Origin: Nanobdellota archaeon
GTDB taxonomy: Archaea; Nanobdellota; Nanobdellia; Pacearchaeales; GW2011-AR1
Assembly: GCA_030648155.1 (NCBI GenBank)
Contig: JAUSIK010000008.1
Coordinates: 274,491 to 338,490, forward strand
Length of the DNA stretch: 64,000 nucleotides
Direction: 5' to 3'
Shown piece by piece: positions 13,001 to 52,700 of this stretch. Position numbers and translations under genes: made by a program. Positions within the stretch are counted from its first letter, which is position 1. Each line of letters begins with the position of its first letter. The notes under the pieces are model-generated. The model was not told where the DNA came from. It searched no databases and worked only from the letters and a program-made list of their open reading frames with translations.

Positions 13001-16000
13001 ATGGATATTATGGATAAGAAAAAGAAAAGAGAGGACCTAATCTTGGAAGCAAAGAGATTCTTTGACTCTCATAAAAAAGAGATAGTAGAGGCAGCAAGAG
13101 AAGGAGAAAGAGTAATAAGAATAAAATTTTCAGACCTTTCAAAATTTTCTCCAGAATTGGCAGATAATTTAATAGACACGCCGGAAGAAACTCTGGAAAT
13201 ATTAGAAGCTGCTTTAGAAGAGTCTGAATATGTAAAAAATCCCAGAATAAGAATTGTAGATCCCCCGCATACAACAAATATATCGATAAGAAATATTAGA
13301 GCAAAGCATCTTGACCAATTTATTTCTATTGAGGGCATTGTCAAACAGGCCTCTGATGTTAGGCCTCAAGTTATTAACGCTAGATTTGAATGCCCAAGTT
13401 GTGGGGCAATACTTTCCGTTTTGCAGGTAGATAGAAAATTTCATGATCCCTCACGGTGTTCATGTCAATGGAAAGGAAATTTTAAACTTTTATCAAAAGA
13501 AATGGTTGACGTACAGCGCCTTGTAATAGAAGAATCCCCTGACTCTCTTGAGGGAGGAGAACAGCCAAGAAGAATAAACGTCTTCCTAAAAGAAGATTTA
13601 GTTGATCCAAAAATGGAAGAAAGAACAACTCCTGGTAGCAAAGCAAAAATCCATGGCATACTAAAAGAAATTCCTGTTCCTCTTCCAACAGGCATATCCA
13701 CTAGATTTGATATAGCATTAGAAGCAAATAATATAATTCCAACTGAAGAGTCTTTTGAAGACCTTAATATTAAAGAAGAAGATATGAAAGAAATTCTAGA
13801 GTTAGCTGCAGATCCTTTAGTGTTTAAAAGATTGTCTCAAAGTATCGCTCCCAGTATATATGGTTTTGAGAAAATAAAAGAAGCGGTGCTTCTCCAAATT
13901 TTTGGAGGCGTCAAAAAAACAAAGTCAGATGGTGGCTCAACTAGAGGAGATATCCATATTCTTCTGGTAGGTGATCCTGGAGTAGCAAAGTCTGTAATGT
14001 TAAAATTTATTTCAACGGTAGGCCCTAAAGGACGCTACGTATCAGGAAAAGCCGCCAGTGCAGCAGGTATTACTGCTTCTGTAGTTAAAGATGAATTTCT
14101 TAAAGGCTGGTCTTTGGAAGCTGGAGCAATGGTATTAAGTAATCATGGAATAATTTGTCTTGATGAAATTGAAAAAATGAGCGAACAAGATAGATCATCA
14201 ATGCATGAAGCGATGGAACAGCAATGTTACCATCCTAATCTAGAAATATCATTTCCAGATGGTTCAAAAGAAAAAATAGGCACTTTAGTAAACTCTTTAA
14301 TGGAAAAATATAAGAATAAAATACAACCAGGAATTAATTGTGAAATTCTTCCTCTAGAGGAAGAGATAAAAGTTTTAACTACTGATTTCGAATCGATCTA
14401 TCCTGCCAAAATAAAAAATCTAAGCCGGCATAAATCTCCAGAAGAATTAATAAAAATAACCCTAAATAATGGAAGAGAAATAACAGTTACTCCAGAGCAT
14501 CCATGTTGGGTAATAAGAGATGGAAAAATAACCACTACTCCAGCTGAAAAACTCTCAAATGAAGAATTTTTCCCAATTCCAGCAGAATTACCTATAGAAG
14601 GAGAAGAACAGACTTTCGCACAAAAACCATGGAAGAACGGGCCTCAATTATGCAAACTTCTAGGGTATCACATAAGCGATGGTTGTTGCGAATTAAATAG
14701 AGGAAAAAAGAACGGAATTCAATTCTCTAACAAGAATAGTGTCCTAATTGAGGATTATAAAAATTCAATTAATTCTTTATTTAATTTAGTTCCAGGCATA
14801 ACAAAAAAGCAAGAGGTATTTTCAGTAAGAGTAATTTCGAAAGAAGTTGCCGAATTTATGCACTCATTAGACAAAAATTTGATGGAAAAAGGAATATTAA
14901 AAGTCATCCCAGATAAAATTATGAAGTGCAAAAAAGAAGATCTTGCATTTTTGTTAAGAGCATTATTTGATGGAGATGGTACTGTAGTTAACGTAAAGAG
15001 AAATGGTCTTAGAATAGGCCTTATAACTGAAAATAAAAAGTTAGCAGAACAAGTTGCTGAATTGCTTCTAAGATTCGGAATAATTTCCTCTATTTACAAA
15101 GATGAAGAGTTTTATAGACTAGATATTACTGGTGAAGAAAATATTTTAAAGTACTATGAAAATATAGGTTTCTTGTCAGATAAAAAACAAAATAGAATTA
15201 AAGAGTATTTATCCAAAACAAGAACATTCAGGTCAGTTACAGATATAATTCCTAATGTGACTCCTGCAATAGCAGACATATTCAAAAAATTAAAAATTAA
15301 TCAGCAAAAGTATTTAGGAAACCAAATTTGTATGAACTGTAATAAACATCGTAATTTTCTTCAAAAAATGACTAAAATAGCAGAAGAAAAAGTAGAAAGA
15401 TTATTTAACGAAAAAGAAAATCTTTTAAAAACCTTGAATACAAAAAAATTAGGGCAAATAAGGAAGAATTTAGAGTTATCTGCCTTATATATTTCAGAAA
15501 AATTAGGTATTTCGGATTATTTATTAGGCGAGAAAGAAAAAAAAGAACTAAATGATGAAAATTATCAAAAAGTCTTGCTGTATGAAATAGAAAGTATGCT
15601 ATCGATACTTCCAACATTAAGAGAAATAAAAAGATTAGCTTTTGGAAAGATAAAATGGGCAAAAATAAAATCAGTAGAGAGAATAAAAGCGGATACAAAA
15701 TGGGTATATGATATCACTATTGAACCTACTCACAGTTTTATTTCAAATAATATGGTATTGCATAACTCGGTTACAATCGCCAAAGCAAACATTCATGCAA
15801 CTCTTCGAGCAGAAACAACAGTTCTTGCAGCAGGAAACCCTAAACTAGGTCGTTTTGACCCTTATACGCCGATTCCACAGCAAATAGATATCTCTCCTGC
15901 CTTGCTCTCAAGATTTGATGTAATATTTATAATTAGAGACCTTCCAAATAAAGTCCAGGATGAAGCAATTGCATCTCACGTATTGCAGGAGCATACTCAA

Positions 16001-16564
16001 GAAGTAATCAGAGACATAGTCAAGCCAAAATTAATGAGAAAATATGTAGCTTATGCAAAACAAAAAATAAAACCAAAACTTACTGAAGAAGCAATAAATG
16101 AGATAAAAAACTTTTATGTGAAATTAAGAAACCAATCAATAAAATCTGATTCAGAAATAAAACCTATCCCAATAACGGCAAGACAGTTAGAAGGAATAAT
16201 TAGGTTAGCAGAAGCTCATGCTAAACTTCATCTAAGAAAAACAGTAACGGCCAAAGATGCGCAAACTGCCATAGACCTTCTAAAAACCTCTCTATCGCAA
16301 GTAGGCTATGATGAAGAGACTCAAACATTTGATATAGATAAGATAACAACAGGAATATCTTCATCAAAAAGAGGAAAAATTGTTCTTGTAAAAGAAACCC
16401 TTTCACATCTAGAGGCCCAATTAGGAAAATTAATACCTATAGAAGAAATAGAAAAAGCTCTTGAAAACAAAATAACAAAACCAGAATTAGATGAAGCTAT
16501 AGACCAATTATCAAAGATGGGAGACATCTTCAAGCCAAAACAAGGATTTATTCAAAAAATCTAA
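13001..16564 (+). CDS. mcm: Replicative MCM helicase, intein-containing (673 aa after splicing)
   Basis: Zn finger CPSC..CSC, Walker A GDPGVAKS, Walker B LDEIEKM, EAMEQQ, LLSRFD, TARQLE. Confidence 0.97.
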   Translation: MDIMDKKKKREDLILEAKRFFDSHKKEIVEAAREGERVIRIKFSDLSKFSPELADNLIDTPEETLEILEAALEESEYVKNPRIRIVDPPHTTNISIRNIRAKHLDQFISIEGIVKQASDVRPQVINARFECPSCGAILSVLQVDRKFHDPSRCSCQWKGNFKLLSKEMVDVQRLVIEESPDSLEGGEQPRRINVFLKEDLVDPKMEERTTPGSKAKIHGILKEIPVPLPTGISTRFDIALEANNIIPTEESFEDLNIKEEDMKEILELAADPLVFKRLSQSIAPSIYGFEKIKEAVLLQIFGGVKKTKSDGGSTRGDIHILLVGDPGVAKSVMLKFISTVGPKGRYVSGKAASAAGITASVVKDEFLKGWSLEAGAMVLSNHGIICLDEIEKMSEQDRSSMHEAMEQQCYHPNLEISFPDGSKEKIGTLVNSLMEKYKNKIQPGINCEILPLEEEIKVLTTDFESIYPAKIKNLSRHKSPEELIKITLNNGREITVTPEHPCWVIRDGKITTTPAEKLSNEEFFPIPAELPIEGEEQTFAQKPWKNGPQLCKLLGYHISDGCCELNRGKKNGIQFSNKNSVLIEDYKNSINSLFNLVPGITKKQEVFSVRVISKEVAEFMHSLDKNLMEKGILKVIPDKIMKCKKEDLAFLLRALFDGDGTVVNVKRNGLRIGLITENKKLAEQVAELLLRFGIISSIYKDEEFYRLDITGEENILKYYENIGFLSDKKQNRIKEYLSKTRTFRSVTDIIPNVTPAIADIFKKLKINQQKYLGNQICMNCNKHRNFLQKMTKIAEEKVERLFNEKENLLKTLNTKKLGQIRKNLELSALYISEKLGISDYLLGEKEKKELNDENYQKVLLYEIESMLSILPTLREIKRLAFGKIKWAKIKSVERIKADTKWVYDITIEPTHSFISNNMVLHNSVTIAKANIHATLRAETTVLAAGNPKLGRFDPYTPIPQQIDISPALLSRFDVIFIIRDLPNKVQDEAIASHVLQEHTQEVIRDIVKPKLMRKYVAYAKQKIKPKLTEEAINEIKNFYVKLRNQSIKSDSEIKPIPITARQLEGIIRLAEAHAKLHLRKTVTAKDAQTAIDLLKTSLSQVGYDEETQTFDIDKITTGISSSKRGKIVLVKETLSHLEAQLGKLIPIEEIEKALENKITKPELDEAIDQLSKMGDIFKPKQGFIQKI
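14225..15766 (+). mobile_element. 514-aa intein with LAGLIDADG homing endonuclease in MCM at EQQ/S
   Basis: CYHPNLEI start, TPEH block B, LLGYHISDG and LLRALFDGDG endonuclease motifs, VYDITIEPTHSF..VLHN/S end. Confidence 0.95.
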
Positions 16565-21807: not shown

Positions 21808-22218
21808 ATGGATAACTATGAAGAATTATTAAAAAAAGCATACCAAAAAGTAAAAGTAATAAGTAAAGGCTCCGAAAGATTTGAAATACCTAAAGTTCAA
21901 GGCCAAGTTGCAGGAAAAAATACTATAATTACAAATATCTCTCAAATAGCGTCATATTTAAGGCGCCCATTGGAGCAAATAACAAAATTTCTTCAGAAAG
22001 AATTAGCAGCGGCAGGCAAAATAGAAAATGATCGCCTTATTCTCAACACTAAATTAAATTCCCAAAAAGTTAATGAAAAAATAGAACTATATGCAAAAGA
22101 ATTTGTTATTTGTCCAGTTTGCACAAAACCAGACACAGAGATAATAGCTGAAAAAGGAATAAAATTCAAGCATTGTCTTGCCTGTGGTGCAAAATCACCA
22201 ATAAAATACGGAATTTAA
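21808..22218 (+). CDS. eif2b: Translation initiation factor 2 subunit beta (aIF2-beta)
   Basis: YEELLKKAY...RFEIP...GKNTII.N...FLQKELAAAG; CPVC..PDT..CLACGA zinc ribbon. Confidence 0.93.
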   Translation: MDNYEELLKKAYQKVKVISKGSERFEIPKVQGQVAGKNTIITNISQIASYLRRPLEQITKFLQKELAAAGKIENDRLILNTKLNSQKVNEKIELYAKEFVICPVCTKPDTEIIAEKGIKFKHCLACGAKSPIKYGI

Positions 22219-22648: not shown

Positions 22649-23137
22649 ATGCAATCAATATTATTTGAAAACACAGCAGAAATTAGAAGAAATAAAGATC
22701 TTTTAGAAGAAAAACTAAATGTAAAAATATCCTTTCAAGGAAAGAGAGTTACTATTGAAGGTCCTTCTCTAGAAGAGTATGAAGCATCAATAGTTTTAGA
22801 TGCAATAAAAGCAGGATTTTCAGCAATTAAAGCTCTTTCATTAAAAGAAGATACAAAGATATTCAGAGTCATAAATATAAAGAGTATGACTAAAAAGAAA
22901 AACCTTGAGCTAGTAAGAGCCAGGCTAATTGGCACCCAAGGAAGAACTAAAAGAACAATAGAAGACATTACTGGGTGCGATATTGTAATAAAAGACAATG
23001 ATATAGGAATAATTGCAGATGCTGAATTAATTGAAGAAGTAGTAACTGCAATAAGTAATCTGGCAAGAGGAACAAAACAAGCTAATACTTATCGATACTT
23101 AGAAAAAATGAATACTGAAAAGAAAAAGTATGAATAA
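22649..23137 (+). CDS. KH-domain ribosome biogenesis protein (Dim2/Pno1-Krr1 family)
   Basis: AIKAGFS, RARLIGTQGRTKRTIEDITGCDIVI, LARGTKQANTYRYLE. Confidence 0.88.
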   Translation: MQSILFENTAEIRRNKDLLEEKLNVKISFQGKRVTIEGPSLEEYEASIVLDAIKAGFSAIKALSLKEDTKIFRVINIKSMTKKKNLELVRARLIGTQGRTKRTIEDITGCDIVIKDNDIGIIADAELIEEVVTAISNLARGTKQANTYRYLEKMNTEKKKYE

Positions 23138-23285: not shown

Positions 23286-23580
23286 GATCTCGTAGCTCAG
23301 TCGGTAGAGCACATGGCTGTAGTACGTTGTTCGAATTAAATAATCGAGCTAAATAAAGTAGCAGCTTTCCAAGGAAACTTGGGAATGATAAGCGAGTAAA
23401 TTCAGGGAAACCCTACATTAAGTTGAGGGCAATCCTGAGCCAAGCCCGAAAGGGAAGGTGCAGAGACTAGACACTCGCCGCCTAAAGCTGAAAAGCTATG
23501 GTGATGGTATAGTCCTACCCTCCAAGTAATTGGAGAAGGTCGTAACCATGGGGTCGCTGGTTCGAGTCCAGCCGAGATCG
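23286..23580 (+). tRNA. tRNA-Asn(GUU), exons 23286-23320 and 23543-23580, interrupted by a group I intron; CCA not encoded
   Basis: Acceptor GATCTCG/CGAGATC, G73; D arm GCTC/GAGC; anticodon stem CATGG/CCATG with spliced loop CTGT|TAA; T arm GCTGG-TTCGAGT-CCAGC; 73 nt spliced. Confidence 0.93.
23321..23542 (+). ncRNA. Group I self-splicing intron (IC3-like, 222 nt) at tRNA position 35/36
   Basis: P AAATTCAGGGAAACC, Q GGCAATCCTGAGCCAAGC, R GAAGGTGCAGAGACTAG, S GGTATAGTCC; P3 GCGAGT/ACTCGC; P1 exon GGCTGT with IGS GCAGCT (U.G at splice site); GNRA-capped P2/P6a/P8/P9; terminal G. Confidence 0.92.
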
Positions 23581-23582
23581 TA

Positions 23583-24659
23583 TTATTTATAAGATACTAA
23601 AGAAGGAATTTTATCACCTTCTCTTCTCTCCATACTAATTTTCTCTAACTTGACAACATCTAACTTTCCGTCTAATAAAGCCAATCTCTCAGGAGTTGTA
23701 GTAAAAGGGATAAACTTCTTAAATTTTTCAAAGATTTTAAATTTAGTTATATGTTTTTCATTATGAAGTCCCCATTGATGATAAATCTTGAAAGCCTCAT
23801 TTTTACCAATATAAAATCTTGCATAATTTTCATAAATTCTAAAAATGTGTTTTATTTGATTTGCATCTAATATCTCGTGCATTTGTTTTGCAACCAATAA
23901 ACTATGAAGCTTTCCGCTAATACTTAAAGAAGAAGTTATATGGAAATCTGTATCTATAATTCCTACAACGCATCTCTTTTGAAAGGCATTATTCTTCAAA
24001 ATACTTGAAGGAATGATTATATCTTTTTTTGATCCATAAGGTAAACCTAAAATCTTATTCTTGAATTCTGCTAAAGCTTTGGATTTATAACGAGAATCTA
24101 TATTATTCTTATCTTTTCTTTCTAAAAGTAAAGGTCCAATATTATATAACTTTCTCATTAATTTTCCAATATATTCTTTATGATAAAGATATTCATTAGT
24201 TAAATCTCCACTAACTGTATATCTATAATTTCCCCATCCCCTTTTATCAATATGTGAATATAAGCTGCCATCTCCAATATGAATGCCTATCTCCTCCGCA
24301 AGATCTTCAGTCATCTTATCAGGAATTTTTAAATTTCTTTTTATATCTGCCCAAGAAGGTTTTATTTTTTCATCATAAATTATAGGCCTAATAAAAAGAT
24401 CTCTCAAATTCTTTGTAGATCCAAAATATTCTCTAACTGCAATATCGCTCGAATATCCTGCTATCCATACAGTAAGGTAACTATGTATGTTATTAAATAA
24501 TTCATATTGAATCCTGGCTGCAGCGATTAGTTTTTCTTTTGGATTTTCTATCCGACGTATTTTTTCCAAAATATTTTCATCGATTTTAAAGTATTTTCTA
24601 GGAATGTCTAACTTTTCTTTAATAGGAAGTTCACGCCATTTTTTAGGAATTATATTCAT
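23583..24659 (-). CDS. Free-standing double-motif LAGLIDADG endonuclease/maturase-like protein
   Basis: LAEEIGIHIGDGS (motif 1), CVVGIIDTDFHI (motif 2, conserved G replaced by F); no intein termini. Confidence 0.82.
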   Translation of the reverse strand: MNIIPKKWRELPIKEKLDIPRKYFKIDENILEKIRRIENPKEKLIAAARIQYELFNNIHSYLTVWIAGYSSDIAVREYFGSTKNLRDLFIRPIIYDEKIKPSWADIKRNLKIPDKMTEDLAEEIGIHIGDGSLYSHIDKRGWGNYRYTVSGDLTNEYLYHKEYIGKLMRKLYNIGPLLLERKDKNNIDSRYKSKALAEFKNKILGLPYGSKKDIIIPSSILKNNAFQKRCVVGIIDTDFHITSSLSISGKLHSLLVAKQMHEILDANQIKHIFRIYENYARFYIGKNEAFKIYHQWGLHNEKHITKFKIFEKFKKFIPFTTTPERLALLDGKLDVVKLEKISMERREGDKIPSLVSYK

Positions 24660-26098: not shown

Positions 26099-26527
26099 TC
26101 AAGGTAAAATCCCCATAGACTTCAAAAATAAGTACAATAAAATTAACATGACAATAATCCAAATAATCCTAGGATCTATCTGCCCCTTTTTGCTCTTCCT
26201 ATCTAATAGCTTTTCTAGAACTTTAATTCTAACATCCATATTATTAAACAATTCCTTATAGTTTAAAGACCTTTTTATTTCTAGCATTTCCTTTTTATTA
26301 TTTTCTAAACCAAGGGAGATATTTCTATATGATTGATAAAAAAAATAAATAACTGATGAAATAATGCTAGCTATAGCAATTATACCAAATATTATAATAG
26401 ATTGAACTTTTATTTCTTCAGAGGCATTTAAAACAAATAAGATAAAGGGTACGAATAAGGATAATAAAGTAACTAAAGAAATAAATAAATTAAGATTCTT
26501 ATTATTTTGTGCATCCATCAATTCCAA
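26099..26527 (-). CDS. Membrane protein with coiled coil and C-terminal KKGQ-hydrophobic segment
   Basis: Two N-terminal TMs, coiled-coil linker, KSKKGQIDPRIIWIIVMLILLYLFLKSMGILP. Confidence 0.6.
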   Translation of the reverse strand: MELMDAQNNKNLNLFISLVTLLSLFVPFILFVLNASEEIKVQSIIIFGIIAIASIISSVIYFFYQSYRNISLGLENNKKEMLEIKRSLNYKELFNNMDVRIKVLEKLLDRKSKKGQIDPRIIWIIVMLILLYLFLKSMGILP

Positions 26528-26568
26528 ACATCCTCAACATTTTTAAACATTCTATCAGTCGATTAATC

Positions 26569-27663
26569 ATGAAAGCAAAGATTTCAAATGCAAACAAAAA
26601 AACAGTCCTTGTTGGCCTATCAGGAGGCGTAGATTCATCACTAGCTGTGCTTCTCCTAAAAAAGCAAGGCTATAATGTTATAGGGGCATTTATGAAAAAC
26701 TTTTCAGATATAAAAAATCCCTATACTGGTGAATGCAACTATTTAGAAGATAAAAAAATGGCTCAAAAAATGGCGGCTTTTCTGAATATCCAATTTATTT
26801 TTATAGATTCAGAAAAAGAATATAAGTCGCTAGTAATAGACCCTATGTATAATTCTTATGCAAAAGGCCTAACGCCTAATCCTGATATCTTATGCAATAA
26901 AATGATAAAGTTTCCTATTCTCTGGAAAACAGCTAAAAAAATAAAAGCAGATTATATAGCAACAGGCCACTATGCCAGAATTAAAAAAACTCCAAGTGGT
27001 TATCAACTCCTTCAAGGAAAGGATAAAACAAAAGATCAATCTTATTTTCTTTCAGAACTCTCTGAAAACGACCTTTCCCACACACTATTTCCAGTAGGAA
27101 ATCTGACCAAATCTCAAGTTAGAAAATTAGCTAAAAAATACAATTTCCCAAACTGGGATAAAAAAGGCACGTCAGGAATTTGTTTTGTAGGCAAAGTAGA
27201 TATGAAAAGTTTTTTAAGTAAGAAAATAAGCTACAAAAATGGAAAAGTTCATTCTCCAGAAGGAAAAATTTTAGGCGTTCATCAAGGAATACAGTATTAT
27301 ACAATAGGACAAAGGGCAGGTCCAAGAATAGGAATTAATCTTAACAAAAATGCAGAAAATAAAAAACTTTACGTAGCAAAAAAAATTGGAAGCAATTTAA
27401 TCCTAACTCCAGAAAATCATCCTCTCTTAAAGAAGCAATTAATAAAAATAAATAAAATTCATTTTATAAATAAATTCTCTAAAATTCCCTCAAATCTTAA
27501 AGGAAGAATCCGCCATCTGGGAAAACTGCACAAAGGCAAATTAATAAAAAAATCAAACTCTTATTATTTCAAGTTCGCTAGTCCAATCAGTTCGGTAGCA
27601 GAGGGCCAGTATCTAGTTATCTACAACAATAATCACCTGGTAGCTTCAGGAGAAATGAGATAG
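26569..27663 (+). CDS. mnmA: tRNA 2-thiouridylase MnmA (bacterial type); ORF track extends to 26509
   Basis: GLSGGVDSS PP-loop, TPNPDILCN, ATGHYAR, KDQSYF, SGICFVG, YTIGQR. Confidence 0.93.
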   Translation: MKAKISNANKKTVLVGLSGGVDSSLAVLLLKKQGYNVIGAFMKNFSDIKNPYTGECNYLEDKKMAQKMAAFLNIQFIFIDSEKEYKSLVIDPMYNSYAKGLTPNPDILCNKMIKFPILWKTAKKIKADYIATGHYARIKKTPSGYQLLQGKDKTKDQSYFLSELSENDLSHTLFPVGNLTKSQVRKLAKKYNFPNWDKKGTSGICFVGKVDMKSFLSKKISYKNGKVHSPEGKILGVHQGIQYYTIGQRAGPRIGINLNKNAENKKLYVAKKIGSNLILTPENHPLLKKQLIKINKIHFINKFSKIPSNLKGRIRHLGKLHKGKLIKKSNSYYFKFASPISSVAEGQYLVIYNNNHLVASGEMR

Positions 27664-52605: not shown

Positions 52606-52700
52606 CAGGCCTAGGAGGAATCGAACCCCCGTCAATCGGTTTCTTCTTTATATAAATCAAGTTCCGAAGCCGACTATTCTATCCACTGAACTATAGGCCT
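52606..52700 (-). tRNA. tRNA-Arg(UCG) with a 23-nt BHB-type intron at 37/38 (52641-52663)
   Basis: Acceptor AGGCCTA/TAGGCCT, G73; loop CT-TCG-G|A; C32-C35 (CTTC) pairs with intron GAAG flanked by 3-nt bulges; T arm GGGGG-TTCGATT-CCTCC. Confidence 0.92.

Follow-up and report, generated by a model that had tools for sequence, protein, structure and literature searches.

Group I introns of archaea are known from ribosomal RNA (rRNA) genes. Nawrocki, Jones and Eddy (2018; PMC6125680) reported 39 of them, all in rRNA and all of subgroup IA3 or IB4; many reside in Woese-, Pace- and Micrarchaeota, and homing endonuclease genes often accompany them. The introns of archaeal tRNA genes are generally held to be cut by a protein endonuclease at bulge-helix-bulge (BHB) motifs. 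Passages of the preprint by Williams (2020; bioRxiv 10.1101/2020.01.27.920355) describe the mapping of 5292 group I introns in bacterial tRNAs and refer to an intron database that puts all classical tRNA group I introns in subgroup IC3; for the Azoarcus intron, efficient self-splicing in vitro is reported at 37 °C (PMC13168695). The same passages mention a single hit in a ‘Pacearchaeota’ metagenome-assembled genome (MAG), judged to be a mis-binned bacterial scaffold, and a 2025 paper from the same group (PMC11915505) again treats archaeal hits as probable mis-binning. Full-text searches of an incomplete literature set turned up no paper in which an archaeal tRNA is accepted as host to a group I intron. 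The subject of the present report is a 222-nt insert in the tRNA-Asn(GUU) gene of a Nanobdellota archaeon (assembly GCA_030648155.1). The gene lies in a stretch of 64,000 nucleotides, hereafter the window, that covers 274–338 kb of the 341-kb contig JAUSIK010000008.1. The insert is very likely a compact, bacterial-type (IC3-like) group I ribozyme in a native tRNA gene of the DPANN archaea (Pace-/Woesearchaeota group), belonging to a mobile family and having lost its endonuclease. An earlier model-made reading of the letters alone, here called the original prediction, had proposed, at this place, a group I intron that splices itself. Its observation is confirmed and its interpretation supported, and its statement that archaeal group I introns had been reported in rRNA agrees with PMC6125680.

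Joining the two exons (Table 1) gives a 73-nt cloverleaf tRNA-Asn with the anticodon GUU, the anticodon loop CUGUUAA and G73. In its intron mode, ARAGORN calls the gene as tRNA-Asn(gtt) i(36,222), that is, with a 222-nt insert after position 35. The claim that removal of 23321–23542 leaves a perfect tRNA, interrupted between positions 35 and 36, is borne out by this call, and the coordinates and junctions proposed were exact. Neither default ARAGORN nor the Rfam tRNA model calls the gene, which accounts for the apparently missing tRNA-Asn; that the intron hides the gene from annotation had been foreseen.

The insert matches the Rfam group I intron model RF00028 (Intron_gpI) over 23345–23536 and across the full model, positions 1–253, with 81.3 bits (E = 4e-19), the gathering score being 50 bits. 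All 222 nt are covered by P1–P10, in a compact layout without the P2.1, P5abc or P7.1/7.2 extensions. In P1, the exon end GGCUGU (23315–23320) pairs with the guide sequence GCAGCU (23361–23366), and a U35·G wobble stands at the 5′ splice site. This U·G pair occurs in 21 of 21 aligned copies of the intron, in which the three adjoining P1 pairs are invariant; U-1 and the intron-terminal G are both present in 25 of 25 copies. The 5′ strand of P7 falls within a 17-mer, GGTGCAGAGACTAGACA, that is common to the intron family. The elements listed in the original prediction, namely P1 with its U35·G pair, the P3 and P7 pairings, the GNRA loops on P2, P6a, P8 and P9, and the terminal G, are all as described there, and the check that it proposed, a search with an Infernal group I model, gave the RF00028 match above. 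Its IC3 assignment stands in part. The compact layout and the kinship with bacterial tRNA-Leu(UAA) introns point to IC3, a label that is based here on architecture and kinship. The CCUAA...UAUGG motif in P8 may be a receptor, by analogy to Azoarcus.

Support for the structure comes from 16 archaeal and 5 bacterial homologs aligned over 247 columns, with the variable P1 loop masked as N and the helices assigned by hand; the inner pairs of P5, which had no consistent alignment, were excluded from the model. The P1–P10 model gives standard pairs in 96.5% of 1252 cells, versus 30–49% when the partners are slid by 1–3 columns. Both sides have changed in 22 of the 60 pairs, and no column shuffle of 500 reached the observed value on any of five measures. 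The helices of the catalytic core, P4, P6 and P7, are invariant, and P2, P3, P5, P8 and P9 covary; the compensatory changes of P8 include CGCC/GGUG, CUCC/GGAG and UACC/GGUA. When the 16 archaeal copies are taken alone, 96.6% of the cells are paired and 18 of the 60 pairs show compensatory changes. It follows that the fold was kept under selection during diversification inside the archaea. An unconstrained minimum-free-energy (MFE) fold of −66.7 kcal/mol (z = −3.8; 0 of 200 shuffles equally stable) recovers P2, P4, P5, P6a, P8, P9 and P9.0. Covariation thus backs the insert as a true ribozyme of group I, which confirms the original prediction on this point.

The window intron very probably splices itself, and the cell very probably depends on it for its sole known tRNA-Asn. 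Some points weigh against this view of the locus, here and under the alternatives taken up below. The structure model was derived from the window sequence, which favours the model in the slid-register control, and the shuffle control ignores relatedness; the compensatory changes are independent of both caveats. P10 comprises 2 bp in the window copy and in two close relatives (AGUA) versus 4 bp (GUUA) in most copies. Finally, splicing in vivo is a prediction from fold and conservation.

The host gene is archaeal by its exons and by its surroundings. All archaeal copies of the exons have G1-C72 and no encoded CCA, and all bacterial copies have U1-A72, mostly with CCA. The spliced tRNA of the window is 89% identical to the tRNA-Asn of a congener, G005, and 70–79% identical to bacterial ones. 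Upstream of the gene are found an intein-containing MCM helicase gene (13001–16564, +), aIF-2beta (21808–22218) and an archaeal KH protein (22649–23137); downstream lie a 268-aa protein, MnmA, FtsZ and then a tRNA-Arg with a BHB intron. The rRNA operon and the RNase P RNA of the assembly are archaeal as well. In G005, the order is aIF-2beta, a 98-aa open reading frame (ORF), KH, tRNA-Asn, a 306-aa ORF and MnmA, and the identity between the two genomes is 65% for the KH protein and 60% for the downstream protein. The shared gene order and the identity of the flanking proteins indicate that the tRNA-Asn locus is orthologous, and the two loci differ only in the type of intron and in ~1.6 kb of DNA inserted behind the tRNA. 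A 565-kb Pacearchaeota scaffold likewise has MCM with an intein, aIF-2beta and an arCOG04150 KH protein preceding an intron-bearing tRNA-Asn. The flanking markers, the two-sided synteny with G005 and the exon type thus place the contig segment in an archaeon, as had been claimed. The TATA-like box of Table 1 is presumably the promoter of the tRNA-Asn gene; AACGTTTATAAAA is found likewise upstream of the orthologous gene in G005.

Table 1. Features of the intron-bearing tRNA-Asn gene and its neighbouring ORF, with positions in the window.
Feature	Position	Strand	Details and evidence
TATA-like box TTTATAAAA	23255–23263	+	Centre ~27 nt 5′ of tRNA position 1; read directly
tRNA-Asn 5′ exon	23286–23320	+	tRNA positions 1–35, end ...GGCUGU, U35 = −1 residue; G1-C72; ARAGORN, whole-genome tRNA scan
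Group I intron, 222 nt, without ORF	23321–23542	+	Between U35 and U36; RF00028, MFE fold, covariation
P1 loop	23321–23356	+	Remnant of HNH ORF site; keeps 5′ AGUACG and ORF 3′ tail ...GCUAAAUAA
Internal guide	23357–23366	+	AGUA 23357–23360, P10 strand; GCAGCU 23361–23366, P1 strand; covariation alignment
P2 hairpin	23367–23384	+	GAAA loop 23374–23377; compensatory changes in 7/7 pairs
P3 5′ strand, GCGAGU	23392–23397	+	Partner 23473–23478; 100% of cells paired; 3/6 pairs compensatory
P4 around P5	23401–23439	+	P4, 23401–23406 with 23434–23439, invariant; P5, 23411–23429, 3/4 pairs compensatory
P6/P6a	23440–23458	+	GAAA loop; alignment; P6a also in MFE fold
P7 5′ strand, GACUA	23465–23469	+	Partner UAGUC 23510–23514; G-binding helix, pseudoknot with P3; 5 pairs invariant, 21/21 copies
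P3 3′ strand, ACUCGC	23473–23478	+	Covariation alignment
P8	23479–23503	+	CCUAA...UAUGG receptor-like motif, GAAA loop; 5/8 pairs compensatory
P7 3′ strand, UAGUC	23510–23514	+	Covariation alignment
P9.0, P9 and omega G	23517–23542	+	P9.0, ACC with GGU; P9 hairpin with GUAA loop, 23520–23535; terminal omega G 23542; alignment
tRNA-Asn 3′ exon	23543–23580	+	tRNA positions 36–73, without encoded CCA; ARAGORN, exon comparison
358-aa ORF	23583–24659	−	Tail-to-tail with tRNA-Asn, end 2 nt away; motifs LAEEIGIHIGDGS and VVGIIDTDF, LAGLIDADG-like

The same intron is found at the same site in 7 of 101 related genomes by BLAST of the locus, a set of carriers that spans genus, family and order, and in several related genomes the two tRNA-Asn exons are directly adjacent. 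Among the loci of the relatives compared, tRNA-Asn is intronless in 7, has a short intron at 37/38 in 2 (G005 and G071), and has the group I intron in 7 genomes. Of 400 further high-quality genomes from the whole phylum, 3 contain the exact core 17-mer, and two of these belong to other orders. The distribution is sporadic; resting on BLAST and on an exact motif, both prevalence figures are lower bounds. A 17-mer scan of named genomes gave at least 120 loci, which were then typed. At least 12 named archaeal assemblies, under the labels Pacearchaeota, Woesearchaeota, Nanoarchaeota or ‘archaeon’, have the tRNA-Asn 35/36 intron, as do at least 9 bacterial assemblies, under the labels Omnitrophota, ‘Planctomycetia’ and ‘Spirochaetia’; the Omnitrophota carriers include the closed chromosomes CP070684 and CP070807. 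The junction CUGU/...G/UAA(C/U)C, in which the slashes outside the brackets are the exon borders, is shared by 16 archaeal and 9 bacterial copies. The original prediction mentioned introns at 35/36 in tRNA-Asn/Asp of Patescibacteria. The bacterial tRNA-Asn 35/36 host was found, and the labels among the matches listed are the three named above and not Patescibacteria, a group that this motif-based sample of bacterial hosts does not exclude.

Also among the matches listed are related introns in bacterial tRNA-Thr and tRNA-Arg, and a separate large clade in tRNA-Leu(UAA) of Bacteroidales. The tRNA-Thr(UGU/CGU) and tRNA-Arg(UCG) hosts belong to Omnitrophota or ‘Planctomycetia’ (eleven loci). Since the same intron clade occupies Asn, Thr and Arg tRNAs of bacteria, the ribozyme has moved between host tRNAs within bacteria. 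Matches of the 17-mer in Bathyarchaeia, Nitrosopumilales, Enterococcus, Bacillus and other contigs were set aside as chance, the alignment showing no surrounding intron. The Ser(aga), Phe(aaa) and Tyr(ata) hosts that ARAGORN reports in Bacteroidales fall in the tRNA-Leu(UAA) intron clade and are apparent boundary miscalls. One genome, G064 (‘Woesearchaeota ERP119705_co1_674’; L012/L038, L132), has two copies of the intron, on contig C24 and at the end of C16. By their isolate names, the Pacearchaeota MAG SO_2017_LW4_63 (L110), with an Asn intron, and the Omnitrophota MAG SO_2017_LW3_46 (L122), with a Thr intron, come from the same sampling series, and carriers from both domains may share a habitat.

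In a tree of the intron cores, the Asn introns of archaea fall together with bacterial introns from tRNA-Asn, tRNA-Thr and tRNA-Arg in a 39-row clade with 100/100 support. Judged by this clade, the intron family has crossed between bacteria (Omnitrophota and others) and DPANN archaea; the cross-domain transfer implied by the original prediction is thus matched by close bacterial relatives. All but one of the 17 archaeal copies, sixteen in number, cluster with 91/88 support. Nested among them are L073 and L080, the exons of which are bacterial, and one archaeal copy, L086, falls with the bacterial copies; both placements count against a single passage from bacteria to archaea and would fit transfer from archaea to bacteria, or several transfers in both directions. 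The tree is, moreover, short (~180 columns) and poorly resolved, and the number and direction of the transfers are not fixed by it. A single archaeal clade is nevertheless not rejected (p-AU = 0.47). The two further sub-lineages in the 39-row clade are all bacterial, as is the outgroup (the tRNA-Leu introns), and the bacterial copies have a wider range of host tRNAs (Asn, Thr and Arg); both points favour transfer from bacteria to archaea. One or a few transfers in that direction would be the most parsimonious account, and we hold it loosely; a reverse or repeatedly two-way exchange is possible but somewhat doubtful.

The insert could, alternatively, be a decayed group I relic, now excised at a motif of BHB or relaxed BHB form by the endonuclease and ligase of archaeal tRNA splicing. 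It counts in favour of such a relic, and against a ribozyme at work, that the genome encodes the splicing endonuclease, EndA (PF01974, 99 bits), which is used for many other tRNAs; the whole-genome scan shows many short tRNA introns. Furthermore, the Tocchini-Valentini hypothesis, as a passage of PMC6125680 cites it, predicts the takeover of a group I intron by protein splicing. One of the protein-spliced genes is the tRNA at 52606–52700 (−), which was correctly singled out in the original prediction and is confirmed as tRNA-Arg(UCG). Its BHB intron, 23 nt long and placed at 37/38, forms a perfect central helix, CUUC/GAAG, and the gene is wrongly called Pro(cgg) in one mode of ARAGORN or SeC(tca) in another. 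For tRNA-Asn, BHB geometry was scored strictly (two 3-nt bulges, 4-bp helix) at the true junctions and in seven shifted registers. No BHB was found in any of the 8 registers, the junctions having 3/4 central and 1/3 and 1/3 flanking pairs; the control, the 37/38 intron (22 nt) of G005 tRNA-Asn, scored 4/4, 3/3 and 3/3. The exon helix is intact in register +2 alone. This register lacks the intron helix, relies on the two opening bases of the intron, in which the copies differ, and would give the anticodon GUA (Tyr). BHB excision yielding another tRNA, the contrary case named in the original prediction, finds no motif here. In addition, a relic would be expected to have neither an invariant ribozyme core nor peripheral helices that covary within the archaea. 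We consider a protein-excised relic very unlikely. With EndA and short BHB introns in the same genome as the group I intron, ribozyme and protein splicing systems coexist in this archaeon.

Similarly, there is little to recommend the idea that the split gene is a dead allele and that another tRNA-Asn lies in the unassembled 11% of the genome. Completeness is 88.8%, a point against calling the split gene the only one, as a second tRNA-Asn is not strictly excluded. However, the whole-genome scan of the assembly (1.25 Mb, 24 contigs) found no second tRNA-Asn, and in G063, which is 98% complete, the intron-bearing gene is the sole tRNA-Asn match. The exons form a perfect cloverleaf, the acceptor stems of the intron-bearing copies show compensatory changes among copies, the intron shows no accelerated change (terminal branch 0–0.011), and the promoter-like box upstream is conserved with G005.

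Lastly, mis-binning or chimeric assembly of bacterial DNA into an archaeal MAG, the explanation that passages of Williams (2020) give for the lone ‘Pacearchaeota’ hit, is exceedingly improbable for this gene: the bin does contain foreign contigs and its contamination is 4.4%, but the gene is placed mid-way along its 341-kb contig, is flanked on both sides by archaeal markers and by synteny with the congener, has archaeal-type exons close to those of the congener, and recurs in the same arrangement in the archaeal assemblies counted above, once with the same neighbours on the 565-kb scaffold. The contigs of foreign composition are short, C19 and C21 with 45% GC and C2, C12, C13, C20 and C22 with 61–74% GC, and are probably bin contamination; C19 and C21 carry bacterial-type large-subunit (LSU) rRNA fragments with weak group I matches. 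The tRNA-Asn contig is not among them.

The native group I intron of the window belongs to a family with two size classes, ~195–270 nt and ~420–710 nt, in both domains. The long copies, such as those of the relatives L010, L038 and L046, have an ORF of 108–167 aa in the P1 loop, the 3′ end of which overlaps the guide sequence, P2 and P3. These ORFs are 75–84% identical among archaea and 50–62% identical between the domains (E ~1e-40), and they share invariant CxxC...HH...N...CxxCH...H motifs. Pfam HNH is matched weakly by 7 of 8 ORFs (best E = 0.0034, below the cut-off), and the best PDB match of the ORF profile is the McrA HNH nuclease (E = 0.001). We infer from these matches that the introns home by means of an HNH protein. 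The target, GGCUGU/UAACC, is conserved in the tRNA-Asn of both domains, which would ease homing across the domain boundary. Several archaeal copies have decayed ORFs, and the window copy has lost its ORF, with only the first bases of the P1 loop and the last ORF codons left, in keeping with the usual cycle in which invasion is followed by endonuclease decay and then by loss. A genome search found no HNH homolog elsewhere in the window’s genome.

A different type of endonuclease may stand next to the window’s tRNA-Asn. The 358-aa ORF that faces the gene has no Pfam, NCBIfam or PDB sequence match, even at permissive E-values, and its single-sequence AlphaFold model has a mean pLDDT of 33.8. BLASTP against the intein of the window’s MCM puts both LAGLIDADG-like motifs in register, but only at E = 0.2. 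Its distant relatives (E 1e-22 to 1e-17), however, match Pfam LAGLIDADG_3 above the cut-off. It is a probable divergent LAGLIDADG-type endonuclease. In G018, a member of a different genus, a 55%-identical ortholog (L150 1492–2574) overlaps the 3′ exon of a tRNA-Asn with an ORF-less intron; the ortholog in G050 has an internal stop and no tRNA nearby. The ORF is absent from the syntenic locus of G005, which is without the group I intron. It may be a free-standing homing endonuclease or maturase tied to the ORF-less intron. A second arrangement is found in G006 (‘Nanoarchaeota archaeon H41-bin062_1’), whose ORF-less intron is 91% identical to that of the window. Here, a free-standing and complete HNH gene (115 aa, GTG start) is found 53 nt downstream of the tRNA (L009 1333–1680), and its product is 72% identical to the intron-borne HNH ORFs; the endonuclease has apparently left the intron. 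The pairings in the window, G018 and G006 hint at cooperation or competition between the intron and endonucleases encoded outside it. It is tempting, if only tentatively, to propose that ORF-less copies are kept mobile, or are displaced, by endonucleases beside the tRNA, as in the ‘collaborative homing’ so far described for phages; we would sooner doubt this than rely on it. As to other neighbours, the intein in the window’s MCM gene carries a LAGLIDADG domain, as does that on the Pacearchaeota scaffold (L110 43–2064). MnmA (26509–27663, +) is a strong match to the bacterial-type tRNA 2-thiouridine(34) synthase (356 bits) and is syntenic in G005.

The life of the intron would be as follows. 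The split tRNA-Asn gene would be transcribed from an archaeal TATA-type promoter and the intron would fold, with guide and exon forming P1 around the U35·G wobble. A free guanosine held in P7 would attack after U35; the terminal G (23542) would then take the same pocket, and the exons would be joined to give the anticodon loop of the mature tRNA. No protein would be required for splicing, which would explain how the intron works in both domains. The family would home into its conserved target by means of the HNH endonuclease encoded in the P1 loop; it has crossed between bacteria and archaea, and the window copy afterwards lost its endonuclease gene. This mechanism is already known; the host domain is the new aspect. 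The searched literature accepts archaeal group I introns in rRNA genes only and puts the lone tRNA hit down to contamination. The locus adds to this a ribozyme intron alongside the protein pathway for tRNA introns, and a mobile intron family that, with its endonuclease, has passed between Omnitrophota and DPANN archaea. The close relatives with intronless, BHB-type or group I tRNA-Asn are material for the study of intron-type replacement, and the occurrence of all three states in one archaeal order offers a natural setting in which to test the proposed descent of BHB introns from those of group I.

Among the known systems, the tRNA-Asn 35/36 introns of bacteria (Omnitrophota) are the nearest. 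They share with the window intron the host tRNA, the insertion point, the core and the guide (G/A)UUAGCAGC; they fall with the archaeal copies in the single 100/100 clade and have a homologous HNH ORF in the P1 loop. Unlike them, the window intron has an archaeal host and archaeal exons (G1-C72, no CCA), a TATA-type box and no ORF. The classical tRNA introns are likewise compact and placed in the anticodon loop, with P1–P9 free of large peripheral domains, GNRA loops and a P8 motif of the CCUAA/UAUGG type. The Bacteroidales tRNA-Leu(UAA) introns also have the 17-mer GGTGCAGAGACTARACA. The classical introns differ in position, being Ile 36/37-type or Leu 34/35 versus Asn 35/36 in the window, and the Leu introns form a separate clade (100/100).

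The introns of Nawrocki et al. (2018) are, like that of the window, group I ribozymes of archaea, and the window genome’s own archaeal 23S rRNA gene contains a second group I intron (69.5 bits; C1:303488–303707, −; L005 7489–7708), of the kind that was reported from DPANN archaea in 2018. Unlike those rRNA introns of types IA3 and IB4, the tRNA-Asn intron has a tRNA host and is of the bacterial tRNA-intron type. Archaeal BHB introns, for their part, interrupt the anticodon region as the window intron does and are present in the orthologous tRNA-Asn of G005 and G071. In contrast to these introns, which lie at 37/38 and are removed by EndA and then ligase, the window intron lies at 35/36, has no BHB and contains a full ribozyme in its 222 nt.

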